From a virus (lineage: Duplodnaviria > Heunggongvirae > Uroviricota > Caudoviricetes), in IMG/VR virus record IMGVR_UViG_2561511241_000002: a stretch of DNA of 38,078 bases; one strand, 5' to 3'. Under the pieces are notes generated by a model. The model had not been told where the DNA came from and ran no database searches. It saw nothing but the letters and a program-made list of their open reading frames with translations. This document shows positions 1,411 through 15,470 of the stretch, piece by piece (the first letter of the stretch is position 1; each line of letters opens with the position of its first letter). The position numbers and the translations under genes were made by a program.

Positions 1411-1980
1411 TTACCTAACGTACTTAATTGTTAAACTTATAATTTTCCCAATTATTTCAACATCTTCTATCTTGCACTCGAAGGCTCTGTTTCCACCCTC
1501 GACGAAGATTCTTCCACCGGGTAAACGAGTAATGTCACGGATCGTTATTTCGCCATCAATACTTATTACCCATTTACCATCACGTATATCATCAAATTCC
1601 TTATCACAAATAAATTCAGAATTATTATCTGTGATTACAAAAAGATTCTTGAATGCCGACGGTAGAAATTCTCTATCGAAAATATAAAAACCGTCTTCAC
1701 ACAAGGCCCCATCAGATAATACATATTTAGCAACTTCCATAGTATTTGTATTACCTGAAGTTTGCTTTGAACCATGCCCGGTTGTGAGCCAATTAAGTGA
1801 GGTGCCTGTTTCAAGGGCGCACTGGATTACCCATTCTGCTGGGAATGAGTCACGCATGTAGCGTGTGGCGAGTGTACTTTTAGAGATTCCTAAATGATCG
1901 CACAACGCCTGTCGAGTCTTGAATCCATAAGCTTCTACCATGCGCTCTATAGCGCCTCGTCCGCCTTTCTCCAAATTCAT
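1411..1980 (-). CDS. cI: 186-type CI immunity repressor (about 189 aa)
   Basis: HTH segment RQALCDHLGISKSTLATRYMRD near N-terminus; length and position (between int and the divergent apl/cII genes) match phage 186 CI rather than the 99-aa P2 C. Start chosen at ATG 1980 (GGAG 5 nt upstream). Confidence 0.75.
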   Translation of the reverse strand: MNLEKGGRGAIERMVEAYGFKTRQALCDHLGISKSTLATRYMRDSFPAEWVIQCALETGTSLNWLTTGHGSKQTSGNTNTMEVAKYVLSDGALCEDGFYIFDREFLPSAFKNLFVITDNNSEFICDKEFDDIRDGKWVISIDGEITIRDITRLPGGRIFVEGGNRAFECKIEDVEIIGKIISLTIKYVR

Positions 1981-4766: not shown

Positions 4767-5588
4767 ATGCACCACGGAATTCATCATTTCCATGGGACGC
4801 CTGTCTGGGGAAGTGCTGGCGACGTTCATCGTATTGCGGTGAGCGGAGCTGGCGCTTTCGTCTCCTATGTACGACCAGATCAGATTGCGGCGTCCATTCA
4901 GCACGCTCAGGTCGTCGGCATTGATAACGGCGCATTTTCTGCATGGGTGCGTGGGCTAAAAATTAACTGGAGTGATTTTTATAAATGGCTCCTGAACTAT
5001 TACCACCATCCTAAGGTCGCTTTTTTTGTCATTCCTGATGTTGTAGACGGCGGTGAACGTGACAATGATGCCCTGATAAACGAAGTTCCGAAAATGTTCT
5101 ACGGGAAGGCAACTCCCGTCTGGCATCTGCACGAGTCAATCGATCGGCTTATCGAGCTATGTCGTGAATGGCCTCGTGTCTGCTTTGGATCGTCTGGTGA
5201 ATATGCGGCTATCAGAACTGCGCACTGGCATCGTCGTATGCAGGACGCTTTTGAAGCAATTTATTGCCGACACAATTTCAAAACAGCTGTTCATGGTTTG
5301 CGCATGCTTGACGGTCGTGTGTTGGGAAATTACCCACTGGCGACTGCCGACAGTACAAATCTTGCCTGCAATGTCCCCAAATTTAATAGCAAATATCCTG
5401 AGCTTACGCGGGCTATTCAGGAGGCTGAGTATTCGCGCAATCTGACGGAAAAGGAGCTGAAAGCTGTCATTCTGAAAAACCGTTGCGCAATTTTAAAAGG
5501 TGCAATTGAAGCTGTTCGCCCACCTTCAGTTTCTGATTGGCTGTCGAATGGTTTGCAGCCTTCACAGCTCGAACTGGAGATTGCGTAA
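4767..5588 (+). CDS. conserved hypothetical protein, translationally coupled to dam (alternative GTG start at 4758)
   Basis: ORF 4758..5588; start overlaps dam stop; its stop overlaps the A start (TAATG). No motif I can assign. Confidence 0.55.
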
Positions 5589-7960
5589 TGAACTACAGCT
5601 ATTCCTGGAATGCTGAGAAAAAAGCAATCAATCCTTACGTAGGGACAGAAGAGCAATCTTCAGTTTCTGCGCTTTCAAACCTGATCGCTCTGTACGCTGC
5701 CGATAACGAGCAGGAACACCTGCGCCGCGAGGTACTGAGTGATCAGGTCTGGGAGCGTTATTTCTTTAATGAATCCCGTGATCCTGTCCAGCGCGAAATG
5801 GAGCAGGATAAGCTCATTAGTCGGGCAAAGCTGGCGCATGAGCAGCAGCGTTTTAATCCAGATATGGTCATTCTGGCGGACGTCAATGCCCAGCCTTCCC
5901 ATATCAGCAAGCCGCTGATGCAACGTATTGAATACTTCAGCAGCCTGGGCAGGCCAAAGGCTTATTCCCGCTATTTGCGTGAGACGATTAAGCCATGTCT
6001 GGAACGACTGGAGCATGTACGCGACAGTCAGCTATCCGCTTCTTTTCGCTTTATGGCAAGCCATGAAGGGCTGGATGGCCTGCTTATCCTGCCTGAAATG
6101 AGTCAGGATCAGGTGAAGCGCCTGTCTACCCTTGTCGCTGCGCATATGAGCATGTGCCTTGATGCAGCTTGTGGTGATTTGTATGCCACCGATGACGTTA
6201 AGCCAGAAGAAATCCGCAAGACATGGGAAAAGGTGGCAGCGGAAACCCTGCGTCTGGATGTTATCCCGCCTGCGTTTGAGCAACTCCGTCGGAAAAGAAA
6301 CCGCCGTAAACCCGTGCCCTATGAACTCATTCCGGGTTCGCTGGCGCGTATGTTGTGCGCCGACTGGTGGTACCGGAAATTATGGAAGATGCGTTGCGAA
6401 TGGCGGGAAGAGCAGTTGCGCGCTGTCTGCCTGGTCAGCAAAAAAGCATCTCCTTATGTCAGCTATGAAGCCGTGATGCATAAACGTGAGCAGCGCCGTA
6501 AGTCGCTGGAGTTTTTCCGTTCTCATGAACTGGTGAACGAAGACGGCGACACGCTGGACATGGAGGATGTGGTAAACGCCAGCAGCAGCAACCCTGCGCA
6601 TCGCCGCAATGAGATGATGGCCTGTGTTAAAGGTCTGGAGCTTATCGCGGAAATGCGCGGTGACTGCGCCGTTTTCTACACCATCACCTGTCCGTCACGT
6701 TTCCATTCCACGCTAAATAACGGCAGGCCCAACCCAACCTGGACAAATGCGACGGTAAGACAAAGTAGTGATTACCTGGTCGGCATGTTTGCTGCATTTC
6801 GTAAGGCGATGCACAAAGCCGGATTGCGCTGGTATGGCGTGCGGGTGGCTGAGCCGCATCATGACGGTACAGTTCACTGGCACCTGTTGTGTTTTATGCG
6901 CAAAAAAGACCGCCGCGCCATCACTGCATTACTGCGTAAGTTTGCCATCCGTGAAGACCGCGAGGAGCTGGGCAATAACACTGGGCCGCGCTTTAAGTCT
7001 GAGTTGATTAACCCGCGCAAAGGTACGCCAACAAGCTACATCGCGAAATACATCAGTAAGAACATTGACGGGCGTGGTCTGGCTGGCGAGATCAGCAAGG
7101 AAACGGGGAAATCCCTGCGTGATAATGCTGAATACGTTAATGCCTGGGCGTCTCTGCATCGTGTTCAGCAATTCCGCTTCTTTGGCATTCCGGGGCGTCA
7201 GGCTTACCGTGAACTGCGATTGCTGGCTGGTCAGGCGGCAAGGCAACAGGGGGACAAAAAAGCAGGTGCGCCGGTACTGGATAACCCGCGCCTTGATGCA
7301 ATCCTGGCTGCTGCTGATGCTGGTTGTTTTGCCACCTACATCATGAAGCAGGGCGGCGTACTGGTTCCCCGCAAATATCACCTGATCAGAACCGCTTATG
7401 AAATCAACGAAGAGCCGACCGCCTATGGCGATCACGGCATTCGTATTTATGGCATCTGGTCACCCATTGCAGAGGGCAAGATCTGCACTCATGCAGTGAA
7501 GTGGAAAATGGTTCGTAAGGCCGTTGACGTTCAGGAGGCGGCAGCCGACCAGGGCGCTTGCGCCCCTTGGACTCGTGGCAATAACTGTCCCCTTGCTGAA
7601 AATTTGTACCAACAAGGGAAAGACAAATCAGCTGATGGGGATACCAGAACGGATATCACCCGCATGGATGACAAGGAATTGCACGATTACCTGCACAGTA
7701 TGAACAAAAAAGAGCGCCGGGAACTGGCTGCAAGGTTACGCCTGGTGAAACCGAAACGGCGTAGAGACTACAAACAGCGAATTACAGATCATCAGCGACA
7801 GCAGCTCGTCTATGAACTGAAGTCCAGAGGATTTGATGGCAGCGAGAAAGAGGTCGATTTACTCCTTCGCGGTGGCAGTATTCCGTCAGGAGCAGGCCTG
7901 CGTATCTTCTATCGGAACCAGCGTTTGCAGGAAGATGATAAGTGGCGGGATCTGTATTAA
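5588..7960 (+). CDS. A: replication initiation endonuclease (P2 gpA family, rolling-circle)
   Basis: 790 aa; HUH-like motif VHWHLLCF and paired active-site tyrosines in [10 protein letters not shown] as in P2 A. Confidence 0.9.
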
Positions 7961-8052
7961 TTACGCGGGTTAACAATTCGTGCTCTTAATAATACCAGGC
8001 ATACCAGGCTGATGAACGTAAAAAAACGTTTTACATCAGTAAGATTATTATA

Positions 8053-8087
8053 TACTGTAAATATAAACAGTGGTTATGTATACAGTA
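8053..8087 (+). promoter_or_regulatory. SOS operator: tandem LexA boxes overlapping the promoter of the DinI-like operon
   Basis: Box 1 TACTGTAAATATAAACAGTG (perfect CTGT-N8-ACAG) at 8053-8072; overlapping weaker box CAGTGGTTATGTATACAGTA at 8068-8087; TTTACA/TATACT promoter-like hexamers just upstream. Confidence 0.65.
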
Positions 8088-8112
8088 TTGCTTTGGTGTC
8101 ATAGGAGGAAAG

Positions 8113-8301
8113 ATGCAGGACTATTTTTTGGAGTCTTTGAAGCTCCAGCGCATTGATTTTTTTCTTAAGCTTGTAGCGGCTAGTGAGTGTAGTGATGAAG
8201 AGAAGGGGCTGGCCCTGCAGTGGGTTTCTGAACTGACAGATGAACTCATGGCAAAAATCAGAACCCATGAATACAACCGCTCAATGGATGTCATCAGCTG
8301 A
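8113..8301 (+). CDS. hypothetical protein (62 aa), first gene of SOS-regulated operon
   Basis: ATG 8113 preceded by AGGAGGA; may correspond to the N-terminal part of a 186 Tum-like antirepressor, here as a separate ORF. Confidence 0.5.
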   Translation: MQDYFLESLKLQRIDFFLKLVAASECSDEEKGLALQWVSELTDELMAKIRTHEYNRSMDVIS

Positions 8302-8311
8302 GGTGACTTTT

Positions 8312-8545
8312 ATGCGCATTGAAATAATGATCGATAAAGAGCAGAAGATTAGCCAGTCTACACTGGACGCCCTTGAATCCGAGCTTTACCGCAATCTGCG
8401 CCCCCTGTATCCCAAAACGGTAATTCGTATCCGCAAAGGTAGCTCTAACGGTGTGGAACTGACCGGACTGCAACTGGACGAAGAAAGAAAACAAGTGATG
8501 AAAATTATGCAGAAGGTCTGGGAGGACGACAGCTGGTTACACTAG
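8312..8545 (+). CDS. DinI-family protein (77 aa)
   Basis: MRIEIMIDK...DALESEL...VWEDDSWLH parallels E. coli DinI (MRIEVTIAK...WESADDW); ATG 8312 with GAGGTG SD. Confidence 0.8.
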   Translation: MRIEIMIDKEQKISQSTLDALESELYRNLRPLYPKTVIRIRKGSSNGVELTGLQLDEERKQVMKIMQKVWEDDSWLH

Positions 8546-8551
8546 CGAACG

Positions 8552-8586
8552 TTGCGGACGATAAAACTGGTTTTTATCGTCCGCAA
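8552..8586. terminator. perfect 15-bp-arm palindrome (hairpin) after the DinI-like gene
   Basis: TTGCGGACGATAAAA-ctggt-TTTTATCGTCCGCAA; no clean U-tract, so terminator versus protein-binding site is unresolved. Confidence 0.4.
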
Positions 8587-9000
8587 GGTTGAACAACGAG
8601 CCGCGTGAGGCGTTAGAAACGGGTAGTGAAAAGTGATTTAAGAATGCCTTGTTCCCCTGAAACTTTGGCCTATGCAACAACATTCGACAGCTTTCTTGAT
8701 TATCATAAGTAACTTGAAGTTTAGGGACGATTCTGATGGTATACGTGAAAAATGTATCGTGTGTTGCTTTGGCAAAAAGGAGTTTTAGTGGACAACGGCT
8801 CAATCACCTTCTTTGATATTACTGCTTGTGGGTTTTATCGTTTAAAGAATAAACCCGAAGAGCTTGATTATAAATTCGGCGATCTTATGGGGGTTTTGGA
8901 CGATTTAGAAGGGTGACTCAAGGATAAAAATTTTGAGCAGACTCTCCCATGGAATAAAGAAGAACAACCTCTGCGAACACGAGTTTACAGTCGAGGCCTT

Positions 9001-9951
9001 GTGAGGGACAGCCAGACTAAAGATGCAGTAATTGTTTTATACCGTGAAGTGGGGAACGGTAACGGAATACATGGTATTAAGGTCGGTTCTAAAGTAAGTG
9101 GTGATAGTAAAGGAACCATTAGGGCGGGAAGAGAACATGGTGAGGATAAAATAATTTGGGGTGAACCCTGCTATTACTGGATTATTCCTGAGTTGAATAA
9201 AATAGCATCAATCAGATTCCCCCATTCTTTCGCTGATACTTATCTCTTCGCACAATACTTCATTCAGCATGTAAATAATAATAGTAAGTTAGGTAAAAGA
9301 ACGAAATCTAAGCGTACATTTGAATCAGCTAAGACCCCTGGTCGTTGTGTGGATGTCTACAATACTAAGTTTCAATATAAAGATGGCAAAAATGAGATAA
9401 ACTGTATCTTCAAGTTTGTATTGGAAGAAACAAAACTTAAAGCCGCTGAGGAAAACTTTGAAAGGTTAAGGCATAAAATTACACACACATTGATAAAGGA
9501 TACAACGGTAATAAACCAAAATGACACAAGGCAACCATTGTTGAAGCTAACAAGTGTAGCTTTAGCATCTCTGGTGGGTGAAGAAAAGCGTAATAAGCTT
9601 ATTGGGGCACCTCCTGTTTTGGAGCAGCCTCGTAAAATTGAAGTTAAAATTGACGGTGCACCATCATCGGATGAGCTTCGAAATCTCTTCTCAATGAGAG
9701 GTGAAGAGTCTGAATGGGATGTGGGTTTTTTACTGGCTGATCGTGCTAATCCGGTTTGGCTCAGTAGCTATGTAGCCAGGACTAAACTTCCTCTTCAAGA
9801 TTCGGATGGGTTTGAGCATTATTCAGCGCGTTTTTTACTGGATGAAATAAACAAAATTCGTGATGATTTGATTAGTGAAGTAAAATATGCTGAGGAAGCA
9901 TCCATTAAAGAATCTGAAGCTGCATCCACAAAAAAGATAGCGGAAGGTTGA
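9001..9951 (+). CDS. uncharacterised cargo protein (316 aa from GTG 9001), first gene of two-gene operon; frame stays open upstream to 8752/8788 apart from one in-frame TGA at 8914
   Basis: AT-rich ORF; stop overlaps the next gene start (TGATATG). Upstream in-frame segment carries a strong SD (AAGGAG, 5 nt before GTG 8788). Candidate Rx4-6H element in ERLRHKITH (weak). Confidence 0.6.
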   Translation: MRDSQTKDAVIVLYREVGNGNGIHGIKVGSKVSGDSKGTIRAGREHGEDKIIWGEPCYYWIIPELNKIASIRFPHSFADTYLFAQYFIQHVNNNSKLGKRTKSKRTFESAKTPGRCVDVYNTKFQYKDGKNEINCIFKFVLEETKLKAAEENFERLRHKITHTLIKDTTVINQNDTRQPLLKLTSVALASLVGEEKRNKLIGAPPVLEQPRKIEVKIDGAPSSDELRNLFSMRGEESEWDVGFLLADRANPVWLSSYVARTKLPLQDSDGFEHYSARFLLDEINKIRDDLISEVKYAEEASIKESEAASTKKIAEG

Positions 9952-9952
9952 T

Positions 9953-10489
9953 ATGACAGAAACGGAAGGTTTGATAATAACAGTTGCAAAACAGCAGGCG
10001 ATTAATTTTGTTGCTGTTGTTTTGTGCTGCGTTATAAGCTATTTTTCGTTCAAAAGTTTTTCCTATAATGATGCAAAAGATATTTTAGGTGCGCTTATAA
10101 ATATTTCAGCATCTATATTCACTATTGTCGGTTTATGGGTCGGTTTTTTATATCCGAATGCAATGAATAGTATTGTTAAGGATGATGTAAGTTATATAAA
10201 AAATGAGCATGACTCACCAAGAATAGAGAAATTAGTTTATACAATAATCACATCTGCTTGTGTTATGGCTGGGATTCTAATTTTCTTTTTGGTTAAGGCA
10301 GTGTTTTATGCATTACCTGTTTATCAAGCTAATAAAGACTTGTTTAAATACATTGGTATTTTCTTCATTTACTTTATTAGCTGGATGCAATTAAAATGCG
10401 TTATGAGCCTGATTTTGAGTAATTTACATTTTGTTAATCACTTACATGGACGTTTAGCAAAAGCGAAATTAGAACACTATGATGAATAA
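9953..10489 (+). CDS. small integral membrane protein with four predicted TM helices (178 aa)
   Basis: Four hydrophobic segments (INFVAVVLCCVISYFSF, ILGALINISASIFTIVGLWVGFLY, LVYTIITSACVMAGILIFFLV, YIGIFFIYFISWMQL); translationally coupled to the upstream gene. Confidence 0.7.
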   Translation: MTETEGLIITVAKQQAINFVAVVLCCVISYFSFKSFSYNDAKDILGALINISASIFTIVGLWVGFLYPNAMNSIVKDDVSYIKNEHDSPRIEKLVYTIITSACVMAGILIFFLVKAVFYALPVYQANKDLFKYIGIFFIYFISWMQLKCVMSLILSNLHFVNHLHGRLAKAKLEHYDE

Positions 10490-10856: not shown

Positions 10857-12638
10857 ATGGCTGAACTATTACCGCAAACAACTTCTATACAAACTATTTA
10901 TTCATGGTTTACTGAAGGTAAGATATTTGTTAATAGACGTTATCAACGAAAATTAGTTTGGACTGCAATAGAGAAACAAAAATTAATTGAATCCATTCAA
11001 AAAAAATATCCAATTCCTGCAGTTCTTCTCGCGGAAAGGGAAAATGATCCTGGCACATATGAAATAATTGATGGCCTACAAAGATTACATGCAATAATGT
11101 CTTTCATCGAAACAGGATATGAATCACTTGATGGAAAACGTTTTAATCTGGACGCTTTTCCCACAGCGAAAAATCGAGCGGATGAAGGTAAGTTTGTTGC
11201 AGTGAAAGCTGATAATCTTTTAAGTCAGCGTGAGGTTACTCAGTTATTGGATTATTCTCTTGCAATGTCCATTATGCGTAATGCGACTGAGAACGAAATA
11301 AATGATGTTTTTGATAGAATTAATACATACGGGCATAGACTTAGTGATCAAGAAAGGCGCCAGGCTGGTATACAAAATAAATTTTCAAATATGGTTAGGG
11401 ATATTGCCTGTTCTATCAGGGGGGATGTATCTGACGACATATTGCTTTTAGAGCAAATGCCGTCTATTAGCATTGATTTGCCACTAACTAAACATGGTTA
11501 CCAAATTCAGTCGGAAGAAGTATTTTGGGTAAAACATGGGATCTTACGTTCAACAGACCTTCGTGACAGTATGGATGAGCAATGCATTGCAGATATAGCA
11601 GCTTGTATTGTTGGAGGTAAGTTAATAGATCGTTCCAAAGATGCGCTTGATCAGATTTATAATAATGAAGATGAAGAGTATAGTCGTATTAGCTCTGCTA
11701 TTAATGTTTATGGTGAAGGAAAATTTGCAGAAGAGTTTAAATTCTGCATCCAGGAAATAACAAAAGTATGTAATAGTGACGGTGAAATTAAACTCAGGGA
11801 TTTAATCTTTACTAAACGTACTACAAATGCTTTCCCAGCCATATTTGCTGTGTTATTTATTGCTTTTCATGAATTACTCATTAAAGAAAATAAGAAGATT
11901 AATAATTATAAAGGTGTAAAAGACAATCTTAATAATATAGTCACTCGACTAGATACTAAAAGATCTGCTACTGGTGGGGAAGAGAGAAGAAAGAATATTA
12001 ATTCTATCATAGGCTTGATTAAAGATAACTTTATTGATAGCGCCGATAGCAGTCATATCTATAATTCTCACAATACGGTGGATATTGAGGATATTTTACG
12101 AAGATCTGAAATAGAGCTTGCAAATTATGAACTGAAACAGGGTTTGTTGATGTTAGGCGGAGAGCGAACTATTGATGATGGCATTCATGAGAAAATATTC
12201 TCCACAATTTGTGCTATTGCTAACATCGGTAAAGGTAACAAGAACGGTGTAGTTGGTAAGTTATTGCTTGGTGTAACAGATAAACCAAGTGATACAAGTA
12301 GAGTAAAAGAGCTTGATGATATAGATGCACATGTAGTTGGTGAGAGAAGTGTTGTTGGTGTTAAAAGAGAAGCTATTAAACTCGGCATATCAATGGAAGA
12401 ATATTATAGACGTTTTTGCGATGAGTTGAAAAAATCTGCTTTGAGTGAGCCTCTTAAATCACAAGTGGTGAGTTTGATTGACTATAATGACTTTTATGGT
12501 TATGGAGTTATAGTTATTACAATTCCACTTCTAGCATCTTATTCTAGTTATGATGGGGATATTTATTATCGTGCTGGCGATAATACCGTAAAAGCAACAG
12601 TTATCGAAGCAGCAGATATTGCAACACGTTTTAAATGA
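10857..12638 (+). CDS. DUF262 (ParB/GmrS-like N-terminal domain) protein, 593 aa, C-terminal region unassigned
   Basis: N-terminal RRYQRKLVWTAIEKQKLIESI and EIIDGLQRLHAI match the DUF262 signature (FQR..vW...Q..LIdS; IIDGQQR); no H-x-x-P His-Me finger (DUF1524) motif seen in the C-terminal half. Very AT-rich. Confidence 0.8.
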   Translation: MAELLPQTTSIQTIYSWFTEGKIFVNRRYQRKLVWTAIEKQKLIESIQKKYPIPAVLLAERENDPGTYEIIDGLQRLHAIMSFIETGYESLDGKRFNLDAFPTAKNRADEGKFVAVKADNLLSQREVTQLLDYSLAMSIMRNATENEINDVFDRINTYGHRLSDQERRQAGIQNKFSNMVRDIACSIRGDVSDDILLLEQMPSISIDLPLTKHGYQIQSEEVFWVKHGILRSTDLRDSMDEQCIADIAACIVGGKLIDRSKDALDQIYNNEDEEYSRISSAINVYGEGKFAEEFKFCIQEITKVCNSDGEIKLRDLIFTKRTTNAFPAIFAVLFIAFHELLIKENKKINNYKGVKDNLNNIVTRLDTKRSATGGEERRKNINSIIGLIKDNFIDSADSSHIYNSHNTVDIEDILRRSEIELANYELKQGLLMLGGERTIDDGIHEKIFSTICAIANIGKGNKNGVVGKLLLGVTDKPSDTSRVKELDDIDAHVVGERSVVGVKREAIKLGISMEEYYRRFCDELKKSALSEPLKSQVVSLIDYNDFYGYGVIVITIPLLASYSSYDGDIYYRAGDNTVKATVIEAADIATRFK

Positions 12639-13704: not shown

Positions 13705-15470
13705 CAAAAAATCTCCACAATATTGCTGGTATTGGCGGACTCGCCCTGCAGTGGTTCGTTAAACAGTGCGTGCATTGTTGCCCAGGCCAGATCGGCATGG
13801 CTGGCTTCTTCGCTGCGGCTGGCTTCATAGGTCGGGCGGTTGCCGCTGGCGGTGGTGGCGCGACGGATTGCCATGAATGACTGCGCAATGTCGGTGTGCC
13901 CGGCGTCAAACTCAAGACGGCGGTGGCTGATAATGTCGTAGGCCTTGAGTACCAGGGCGTTTTTAACGTTGGGGTTGTAGACAAACTCCCGGACGGCAGG
14001 AAAAAACGCTTTCACGTTCTCGTAAACCCCGTGACCAACGCCGGTTGAGTCGATGCCGATATAGGTCACGTTGTACTGTTCGGTCAGTTTTTTGATGGCG
14101 TCAGCCTGGGCGCGAAAGTCCATTCCGCGCCACTGGTGACGCTCAAGAATGCGGAACTTACCGCCTGGCACGGCTGGCGGTGCCACCACCACGCATCCGG
14201 CGCTGTCGCCGTTCTGCGTACCTTTTGCCGGGTCATAACCGATCCACACTTCGCGCCAGCCAAACGGGCGCAGGGCCAGTGCATGAAAGTCGGTCCAGAC
14301 TTCCCAGCTGTCCACCATGCACGCCTGCAATTCGCTGAGCGGGAACACGGACGCGAGATCGTCCACGAACTCGCACATCAGCAAGTTCTGGTATTCGTCA
14401 GGGCTGTACTCCATGCGCAACTGGTCAAGGTCGAACAGGTTACAGCCGCCGCGCACCGCATCTTCCACGGTGACTATCTGGCGGTATTGCCCGTCTGCGC
14501 ACAGCAGGCCGGGGGCCAGATTGCTGTGGGACAGGTCGATGTCCACCTTATCGGCTCTGTTGCGCCCACGGTTGAACAGCGCACCGGACCAGAACGGATA
14601 AGCACTGTGTGTCAGACTGGATGGCGTGGAAAAATAGGTCTGTCGCCATTTCTTGTGAATAGCCATACCGGAAGCCACTTTGCGCAGCTCCTGGAATTTC
14701 GGTATCCAGAAATATTCATCCAGATACAGGTTGCCGTGGTAACTCTGGGCCGTGCGGGCATTGGTGCCGAGGAAGTACAGCGTGGCCCCGTTAGGAAGCA
14801 CCATCGGATCGCCTTTCAGCTCCACCTCCACTTCTTTGGCGAAGTCGATGATGTACTGCTTAAAGACGTGGGCTTGTGCCTTACTGGCGGAAAGGAAAAT
14901 CTGGTTACGCCCGGTTAGCAGAGCGTCAATCAGGGCTTCACGGGCAAAATAGAAGGTCGCGCCGATCTGGCGTGACTTCAGCAGGTTGCGGATGCGGTTG
15001 GTTTTTCCGGCTTCCCACCAGTGGCGCTGGTAGTTGAACATGGAGGAATGGAAGATTTCTTCCAGCTTCTCAATCTGTTCATCGGTGAAAACGTTCTTTT
15101 CCGGCTGACGGCGCGGGCCTTTGTTGCGGTTGGCGACGTTAGGGTTTAAGTCGGCTTCGTTGCCGCCATTGTTAAACTTGCCGATCCGCGCATGGCGCTC
15201 CGACTGGCGCGCCAGCAGGTCAATCTCTTTGAAATCTTTCCCTTCTTTGTGCTCCTTCATAATGAGCTGGCAGTAGCGTGCGGCGGTGGTGAGCTGCATC
15301 TGATCCAGCGGCCCATAGTCACCCCACTTGTCGCGTTTTTTCCAGCTGTGAACGGTTGCAACTTTCTCGCCCAGCATTTCAGCAATGCGGGCTACGCGGT
15401 ATCCCTGAAAGTACAGCAGCATGGCCTGCCGACGGGGATCGAGATCTGCGGGTGTCAGTGTGGTGTTCAT
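13704..15470 (-). CDS. P: terminase large subunit (P2 gpP)
   Basis: 588 aa, length and position as P2 P. Confidence 0.9.
   Translation of the reverse strand: MNTTLTPADLDPRRQAMLLYFQGYRVARIAEMLGEKVATVHSWKKRDKWGDYGPLDQMQLTTAARYCQLIMKEHKEGKDFKEIDLLARQSERHARIGKFNNGGNEADLNPNVANRNKGPRRQPEKNVFTDEQIEKLEEIFHSSMFNYQRHWWEAGKTNRIRNLLKSRQIGATFYFAREALIDALLTGRNQIFLSASKAQAHVFKQYIIDFAKEVEVELKGDPMVLPNGATLYFLGTNARTAQSYHGNLYLDEYFWIPKFQELRKVASGMAIHKKWRQTYFSTPSSLTHSAYPFWSGALFNRGRNRADKVDIDLSHSNLAPGLLCADGQYRQIVTVEDAVRGGCNLFDLDQLRMEYSPDEYQNLLMCEFVDDLASVFPLSELQACMVDSWEVWTDFHALALRPFGWREVWIGYDPAKGTQNGDSAGCVVVAPPAVPGGKFRILERHQWRGMDFRAQADAIKKLTEQYNVTYIGIDSTGVGHGVYENVKAFFPAVREFVYNPNVKNALVLKAYDIISHRRLEFDAGHTDIAQSFMAIRRATTASGNRPTYEASRSEEASHADLAWATMHALFNEPLQGESANTSNIVEIF

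Follow-up and report, generated by a model that had tools for sequence, protein, structure and literature searches.

Genomic setting of the operon

We analyzed a stretch of DNA of 38,078 nucleotides, referred to here as the window, which represents a Fels-2-like prophage of the P2/186 family in E. coli. Its first 17.65 kb show only two differences from the prophage adjoining rcdA in the pig ETEC strain ETEC1749, and the carrier of the prophage here is a pig ETEC-like strain. The genes on both sides of the region of interest are arranged from left to right as follows:

up to 1017, minus strand: int, the left-most gene listed
between int and cI: an ORF of 63 aa with a signal peptide
1411-1980, minus strand: cI, the gene of a 186-type CI immunity repressor and presumed target of the antirepressor (assigned by Pfam, BLAST and RefSeq annotation)
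between cI and gene A, in this order: an apl/cox-like gene, cII, fil, a DksA-like gene and dam
5588-7960, plus strand: replication gene A (Pfam Phage_GPA, E 1.4e-127)
right of the SOS operon: three cargo genes, followed by the portal and terminase genes

A second conserved LexA-like box was observed within a promoter ahead of int.

The predicted SOS operon is located in a P2/186-like genome immediately downstream of the ORF with the GPA domain that ends at 7960. It begins about 70 nt past the stop codon of gene A, as it does in 186, PSP3 and Fels-2, and the order gene A, LexA box, tumA-like gene and dinI-like gene is common to the window, 186 and PSP3. Its elements are the following:

8030-8035, plus strand: -35 hexamer TTTACA of the predicted SOS promoter, the equivalent of 186 p95 (assigned by conservation of spacing)
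8053-8058, plus strand: -10 hexamer TACTGT, which is the left arm of LexA box 1 and the same as the annotated -10 of 186 p95
8053-8072, plus strand: LexA box 1, TACTGTAAATATAAACAGTG, with a perfect CTGT-N8-ACAG core and three mismatches to the 20-nt consensus
8068-8087, plus strand: LexA box 2, CAGTGGTTATGTATACAGTA, overlapping box 1 by 5 nt and with five mismatches to the consensus
8103-8108, plus strand: AGGAGG, the Shine-Dalgarno sequence for the 62-aa gene, which precedes the ATG by 4 nt and is kept in relatives
8113-8301, plus strand: tumA-type gene of 62 aa, a predicted antirepressor with profile homology to the N-terminal half of 186 Tum
8300-8303, plus strand: ribosome-binding site GAGG of the DinI gene, overlapping the TGA stop codon of tumA (8299-8301)
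8312-8545, plus strand: tumB, a DinI-family gene of 77 aa (Pfam DinI; RefSeq start at 8312)
8552-8586, plus strand: perfect 15-bp hairpin just past the DinI stop codon, a possible partial terminator or RNA end

Promoter and LexA operators

An earlier note on this DNA had described a perfect CTGT-N8-ACAG LexA box, an overlapping weaker box and promoter-like hexamers ahead of two small ORFs, and all of these elements were found. The sole match to CTGT-N8-ACAG in the 38-kb window is CTGTAAATATAAACAG at 8055-8070. A match to this bare pattern is within chance (0.53 expected; at least one match in 37 of 100 shuffles). The extended core TACTGT-N8-ACAGT matches exactly at 8053-8071 (0.39 expected in a search allowing one mismatch) and is found unchanged at the equivalent position in nine phage lineages with diverged flanks. 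Carriers of the invariant core include 186, PSP3, Fels-2, ESSI2_ev015, Cronobacter phage ESSI-2, two Yersinia phages and ENT90. In these phages the core precedes the equivalent small ORF, and the flanking DNA is unalignable.

The hexamers TTTACA and TACTGT are separated by 17 nt, and this spacing is identical in five of six diverged Peduoviridae phages; in the sixth, a Dagavirus, the double box is located further upstream and the stretch compared ended short of its -35 region. The promoter of the window corresponds to the annotated promoter p95 of 186, TTCACA-18 nt-TACTGT. Moreover, the LexA box overlaps the -10 hexamer, and both are aligned with the annotated LexA site and -10 of 186, as judged from the sequence. 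A scan of 7800-8800 with the sigma-70 consensus returned no promoter at the threshold of the scan.

The weaker box at 8068-8087 has five mismatches as compared to three in box 1, and its left half lacks the canonical CTG. According to our own calculation, the chance of the full 31-nt double pattern in the window is about 1e-4. Among 47 distinct upstream sequences from viral contigs, strongly variable columns were confined to the two central spacer positions of box 2, which is the pattern expected of a LexA site. Since the scan of viral contigs for the double operator is biased by construction, we took loci anchored by the protein as the test of conservation. Loci gathered in this way showed the double box in the six phages whose promoter spacing is compared above; the genera to which they are assigned are Felsduovirus, Dagavirus, Gegevirus, Elveevirus and Wadgaonvirus. 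The operator of the Fels-2 group reads CTGT-N8-ACAGTGG-N8-ACAG; the junction is CAGTAG in SEN8, one of the six phages, as opposed to CAGTGG in the Fels-2-type double box. A single LexA box was found in 186, PSP3, ESSI2, ENT90 and the Yersinia enterocolitica phages.

Likeness to colicin operators

The same double-box architecture is present in promoters of the colicin, pesticin and klebicin type, which read CTGT-N8-(A/C)CAGTGG-N8-ACAGTA. In these operators as in the window the boxes overlap by 5 nt and share the CAGTGG junction, and comparison with the promoters of colicin Y, pesticin and Col plasmids showed that the CTGT-N8-ACAG and GTGG-N8-ACAG cores directly abut. The colicin Y promoter shares the 22-mer CAGTGGTTATGTATACAGTATT with the window letter for letter. 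When region 8040-8100 was compared with plasmids, many small mobilizable plasmids matched. Four of these matches were examined: two are located directly upstream of bacteriocin genes (colicin Y and pesticin), and two belong to Col-type plasmids with no toxin gene in their gene table, which is incomplete. LexA box 2 is near-identical to the operators ahead of colicin Y and pesticin and to those of other Col-type plasmids. Unlike the operator in the window, those of the bacteriocins drive toxin and lysis genes on small plasmids.

The double boxes of colicin promoters are bound by two LexA dimers, which results in tight and delayed expression (PMC2994835, PMC4482635), and these promoters have further co-repressors such as IscR and AsnC (PMC4482635). 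By analogy, a tum promoter of the Fels-2 type may, owing to its double box, respond later and under tighter control than the single-box promoter of 186. A late and tight response would be sensible for a switch that kills the host. A literature search with the operator sequence as a string returned unrelated papers only.

The DinI-family protein and the TumA-type protein

The 77-aa ORF, which had been called a DinI homologue, matches Pfam DinI (PF06183) with an E value of 6.6e-23 and 81.3 bits (cut-off 24.2) over profile positions 1-63 of 63. Its product also matches the structures of E. coli DinI 1GHH and 7YWA (E 2.7e-6), the former over residues 1-75. The earlier note had suggested an alignment with 186 Tum. 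In this comparison the 77-aa protein corresponds to the C-terminal half (41% identity to residues 71-145 of Tum, E 3e-24), and the 62-aa protein corresponds to the N-terminal half by profiles and not by BLAST.

The 62-aa ORF was found at 8113-8301 behind the LexA boxes as described before. It belongs to phrog_698 (E 3.6e-38), and its dN/dS against diverged homologues is 0.08-0.12 (pS about 0.5, pN about 0.07). The ORF is therefore under strong purifying selection. Pairwise BLASTP of the 62-aa protein with 186 Tum and PSP3 TumA gave no alignment, and for this reason its homology was established by profiles and intermediates. The ORF also matches the Yersinia 'tum' family phrog_8554 (E 2.4e-8) and the PSP3-TumA family phrog_1993 (E 2e-3), and reciprocally the N-terminal half of 186 Tum matches phrog_698 (E 5.9e-6). 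Proteins of Yersinia phages, one of which is annotated as 'tum protein', bridge the two with 35.8 bits to the ORF of the window and 46.2 bits to 186 Tum. Even when the Yersinia intermediates were left out, hhalign aligned residues 5-47 of the 62-aa ORF with Tum/TumA at a P value of 7.5e-6 and a probability of 84%. The pattern shared in the multiple alignment is L-x-R-[IV]-x-x-[IF]-x-[RK]-L-x-A-x-x-x-C-x(7)-A-L-x-[WL]-[IV]-[AS]-[ED]-[LI]. These matches support a remote homology, which can nevertheless be demonstrated, of the 62-aa protein to the N-terminal half of 186 Tum and to PSP3 TumA.

AlphaFold predicted a two-helix hairpin for the 62-aa protein, with helices at 2-23 and 28-61 and a pLDDT of 90.8. 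A Foldseek search of this model against the PDB returned generic helical hairpins only, all with E > 0.9, which is functionally uninformative, and Pfam and PADLOC contained no family for the protein. In a large protein search the 120 matches listed were close relatives only (at least 81% identity), and the search was therefore of no help for distant homology. To our knowledge, there is no direct publication of the antirepressor activity of a Fels-2-type TumA.

Both homologies, the gene order and the 186-type CI support the earlier proposal of a LexA-controlled, Tum-like module split into two ORFs. We consider it very probable that the region is the SOS antirepressor operon of a Fels-2-like prophage of the P2/186 family. 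Alternatively, it could be an SOS accessory 'moron' unit that only supplies a DinI-like modulator of RecA, in which the 62-aa protein has another small regulatory role and the prophage is induced otherwise or never. The DinI gene is the only one of the two with a curated family match, and the 62-aa protein, which has no direct BLAST match to Tum, is annotated as 'hypothetical' everywhere or wrongly as 'levan regulatory protein'. This alternative is nevertheless improbable in view of the profile homology of the 62-aa protein to the N-terminal half of Tum, including PSP3 TumA. In addition, the LexA box and the TumA-type ORF are kept without a DinI gene in ESSI-2, YenM_324, ENT90 and YenM_06.16-2, and likewise in ESSI2_ev015. 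In other relatives the tumA-type gene and the DinI gene are separate ORFs, and in 186 they are fused. As several relatives lack DinI, it is the small antirepressor that constantly accompanies the LexA box, and DinI is an optional addition. A role limited to RecA modulation is also at odds with the CI of the window, in which no self-cleavage domain was detected so that an antirepressor would be needed.

The CI repressor and its pairing with TumA

The CI protein of the window matches Pfam Phage_CI_repr and Phage_CI_C well above the cut-off, and along its full length it shares 32% identity with 186 CI (E 1e-37). It has no recognizable self-cleavage domain of the lambda type; therefore, an antirepressor would be needed for SOS induction. 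By analogy with 186, TumA of the window presumably acts on this CI.

Phages with a TumA that is 98-100% identical to that of the window carry CIs that are 38-54% identical to the window CI and 34-59% identical to one another. Most of this divergence is located in the C-terminal domain (21-51% identity), as opposed to 61-82% in the N-terminal DNA-binding domains within the group, which are 43% identical to that of 186. One TumA in combination with diverged CIs means that either the target surface is conserved or the target is another one. The pattern would fit an antirepressor that recognizes the N-terminal domain of CI and could act across CI variants; such cross-talk would resemble that of the Gifsy antirepressors (PMC3121763). 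If the target were different, the TumA-type protein would still be needed for induction and would act on LexA, RecA, Apl or CII instead of CI. An identical TumA alongside CIs that differ to this extent is indeed unusual for a specific pair. Nevertheless, the similarity of the CI N-terminal domains shows that a conserved target surface exists, and the homologous 186 Tum binds CI directly (PMC3121763, PMC7708051). We therefore judge a target other than CI to be somewhat less probable still than the DinI-only role discussed above.

Two further readings have almost no probability. For a lambda-like induction by RecA-stimulated self-cleavage of CI, with an incidental LexA operon, there is a weak match to Peptidase_S24 (PF00717) in the C-terminal region of the window CI, but this match is below threshold (E 0.006, 16.7 bits as compared to a cut-off of 23.3) and none of its segments passes by itself, the protein belongs to the 186-type families with the identity to 186 CI given above, and 186 CI is inactivated by Tum and not by cleavage according to the literature; self-cleavage was rejected on the Pfam domain result. 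In the other reading, the 62-aa ORF would be untranslated and the region would serve the DinI gene as a long 5' leader. This reading has nothing in its favour except the small size of the ORF and was rejected on the dN/dS, besides the strong AGGAGG 4 nt before the ATG, the PHROG family and the confident helical model.

Comparison with known systems

The closest known relative of the module is located in Fels-2 of Salmonella LT2, where the DNA is 97% identical over 7900-8541. The same double LexA operator is found there at the same place after gene A. The 62-aa ORF is 98% identical to STM2728, which is annotated as hypothetical, and STM2726.1 (STM2727) is annotated as 'DinI family, similar to TumB of PSP3'. 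The similarity stops at the DinI stop codon and variable cargo lies beyond it: Fels-2 has STM2726, a gene of the size of orf97, and the cargo in the window comprises a PDC-M18-like pair and a GmrSD-like nuclease. The host also differs, Salmonella for Fels-2 and E. coli for the window. The CI of the window is 40.8% identical to the CI of the Fels-2-like phage RE2010. In Fels-2, STM2726-STM2727-STM2728 behaves as an operon and responds to the mutagen MX; STM2727 was increased 5.5-14.8-fold with MX and grouped with the LexA regulon (PMC2225428). Furthermore, the lethality of a lexA null mutation in Salmonella is reported to be due to Fels-2 (Bunny et al. 2002).

In PSP3, tumA is annotated as 'similar to 5' end of 186 tum; UV induction of prophage' and tumB as DinI-like. 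Like the window, PSP3 has the split into two genes after gene A and a LexA box that overlaps the -10 hexamer. It differs in its single LexA box as compared to the double box of the window, and its TumA is about 14% identical to the ORF of the window and is assigned to phrog_1993 and not to phrog_698. The two ORFs of PSP3 are in the same frame with a stop codon between them, whereas in the window (8113 and 8312) and in Fels-2 they are in different frames. PSP3 tumA has been reported as the carrier of the antirepressor activity (personal communication cited in PMC3121763).

Phage 186 shares with the window a LexA-repressed promoter with TACTGT as the -10 hexamer, the location after gene A and a CI target of the 186 type. 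Its Tum of 146 aa is a fusion of the antirepressor N-terminal half with the DinI-like C-terminal half, whereas the window has two genes; internal starts in 186 tum give rise to truncated DinI-like forms. In addition, 186 has a single LexA box, and orf97 is located downstream. Tum of 186 is repressed by LexA, binds CI and blocks its binding to the operator (GenBank notes; PMC3121763; PMC7708051). In this phage, LexA cleavage leads to de-repression of p95, and CI is then sequestered by Tum (PMC7708051).

A similar logic has been described for the dinI-gfoA/gftA operons of the Gifsy prophages in Salmonella, in which a DinI homologue and a small antirepressor are controlled by LexA and the target is a non-cleavable repressor (PMC3121763). 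Here, however, dinI comes first so that the order is reversed, the antirepressors and repressors are unrelated in sequence to those of the window, and the phages are lambdoid. Deletion of the dinI homologue in Gifsy prophages had no measurable effect on induction (PMC3121763).

The module itself is thus already known, as it has been described for 186, PSP3 and Fels-2, and the literature already notes that tum is divided in Fels-2 and PSP3, in the phrase 'split by a stop codon'. The 97% identity to Fels-2, the presence of the module in 1124 of 5426 complete E. coli genomes and the literature on Tum all lead to this assessment. Textbooks cover the mechanism for 186, and it has also been pointed out for Fels-2 and PSP3, so that our finding contributes one more instance and no new concept.

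Proposed mechanism

For the SOS antirepressor operon we propose the following sequence of events, in which SOS-dependent expression and LexA control would follow the example of Fels-2, and antirepressor activity that of 186 Tum and PSP3 TumA. In a healthy lysogen, LexA dimers on both overlapping boxes would cover the DNA from the -10 hexamer through the probable start of transcription to about the 20th transcribed base and keep the promoter shut. After DNA damage, RecA-stimulated self-cleavage of LexA would free the promoter and a bicistronic mRNA would be made. The TumA-type helical hairpin of 62 aa would then bind the 186-type CI and stop it from binding to its operators. Once CI is blocked, the lytic promoter (Apl, CII, replication) would be de-repressed and the prophage induced without cleavage of the repressor.

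For LexA box 2 and the DinI-family protein we infer additional roles in this operon. In comparison with repair genes, the double operator would most likely tighten repression and delay induction, so that the lethal switch would fire only in badly damaged cells. The 77-aa DinI-family protein may bind RecA filaments and would probably modulate the strength or duration of the SOS signal; it is plausible that this protein tunes the SOS response of the host as well.

Implications for prophage induction

The module would explain induction by DNA damage, including SOS-inducing antibiotics, in very common prophages of E. coli, Salmonella and Klebsiella, and roughly a fifth of the complete E. coli genomes contain it. 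The double operator, the same TumA alongside diverse CIs and the LexA box ahead of int bear on the timing of induction and on the cross-talk of co-resident prophages. As a tentative joint reading, which we regard as possible though doubtful, TumA could act with broad specificity on the N-terminal domain of CI, the operator could be a double lock of the colicin type, and the int promoter P_int could be controlled by LexA. If this were true, one SOS-induced TumA could wake several Fels-2-like prophages of different immunity in the same cell. The double operator would have been borrowed from the colicin operator or have converged on it, delaying the firing, and through an int promoter under LexA control, excision would be tied to the SOS signal. 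No description of this three-part circuit (P_tum double lock, promiscuous TumA and P_int) was found for this phage group.

The downstream end of the operon

The scan of 7800-8800 also returned a single terminator-like match, at 8290-8307. It spans the stop codon of tumA and the ribosome-binding site of the DinI gene, and we do not regard it as a terminator. The hairpin at 8552-8586 has a fold energy of -28.5 kcal/mol (z -4.4). Its function as an intrinsic terminator is uncertain, since the stem is not followed by a U-tract. It occupies the position of t95a in 186, which is a partial terminator.

A putative SOS-regulated promoter of the integrase gene

In phage 186 the repressor gene cI and the integrase gene int are adjacent, whereas in the window an additional ORF is inserted between the two genes. 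This ORF is probably a moron. Owing to its insertion, int may need a promoter of its own. The following features are located on this side of the immunity region:

1204-1395, - strand: 63-aa ORF whose N-terminus resembles a signal peptide and which has several cysteines
1070-1065, - strand: perfect -35 hexamer TTGACA upstream of int
1066-1047, - strand: LexA-like box CACTGGTTATACATACAGTA with 4 mismatches to the consensus
3' of the LexA-like box and just before int, - strand: -10-like hexamer AAAAAT

The element at 1047-1070 precedes the start of int (1017) by approximately 30 nt, and the LexA-like box directly follows TTGACA and precedes AAAAAT. The same arrangement is kept in phage vB_EcoM-813R9 as well as in ESSI2_ev129. 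The box of ESSI2_ev129 matches CTGT-N8-ACAG perfectly despite different flanks. This arrangement suggests a promoter of int that would be under SOS control.

The CI repressor (1411-1980, - strand) was compared with the loci L220-L224. Among the CI proteins of the phage collection, none exceeded 53.5% identity to it, with conserved N-terminal and highly diverged C-terminal domains, whereas the region from gene A to tum shares 90-97% identity with many phages. Judged from this difference in sequence identity, the immunity region is a distinct mosaic module.

Cargo genes and differences from the ETEC1749 prophage

P2-like phages have a variable cargo or defence hotspot in the interval that separates the SOS operon from the portal gene. 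In the window it contains two genes that match the candidate defence pair PDC-M18A and PDC-M18B in PADLOC, as well as the gene of a 593-aa protein:

8788-9951: PDC-M18A match (PADLOC E 6.5e-17)
9953-10489: PDC-M18B match (PADLOC E 2.8e-18)
10857-12638: 593-aa protein gene; GmrSD_N (DUF262) domain, NsnA-like match in PADLOC

Compared with the prophage of the pig ETEC strain ETEC1749, only two differences were found in 17.65 kb. A TGG-to-TGA nonsense change at 8914-8916 affects codon 43 of the PDC-M18A-like gene. As a result, this gene may no longer be active, or its translation may re-initiate at GTG 9001. The other, A-to-C at 13904, results in Ser523Ala in the terminase large subunit.

The TumA-type ORF of phage 500465-1

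The TumA-type ORF of phage 500465-1 is located at positions 601-786 (locus L219). It contains a short internal stretch, RGWLCSG instead of KGLALQW, which looks like a compensated double frameshift. Because of this stretch, the apparent dN/dS of the ORF is raised to 0.41.
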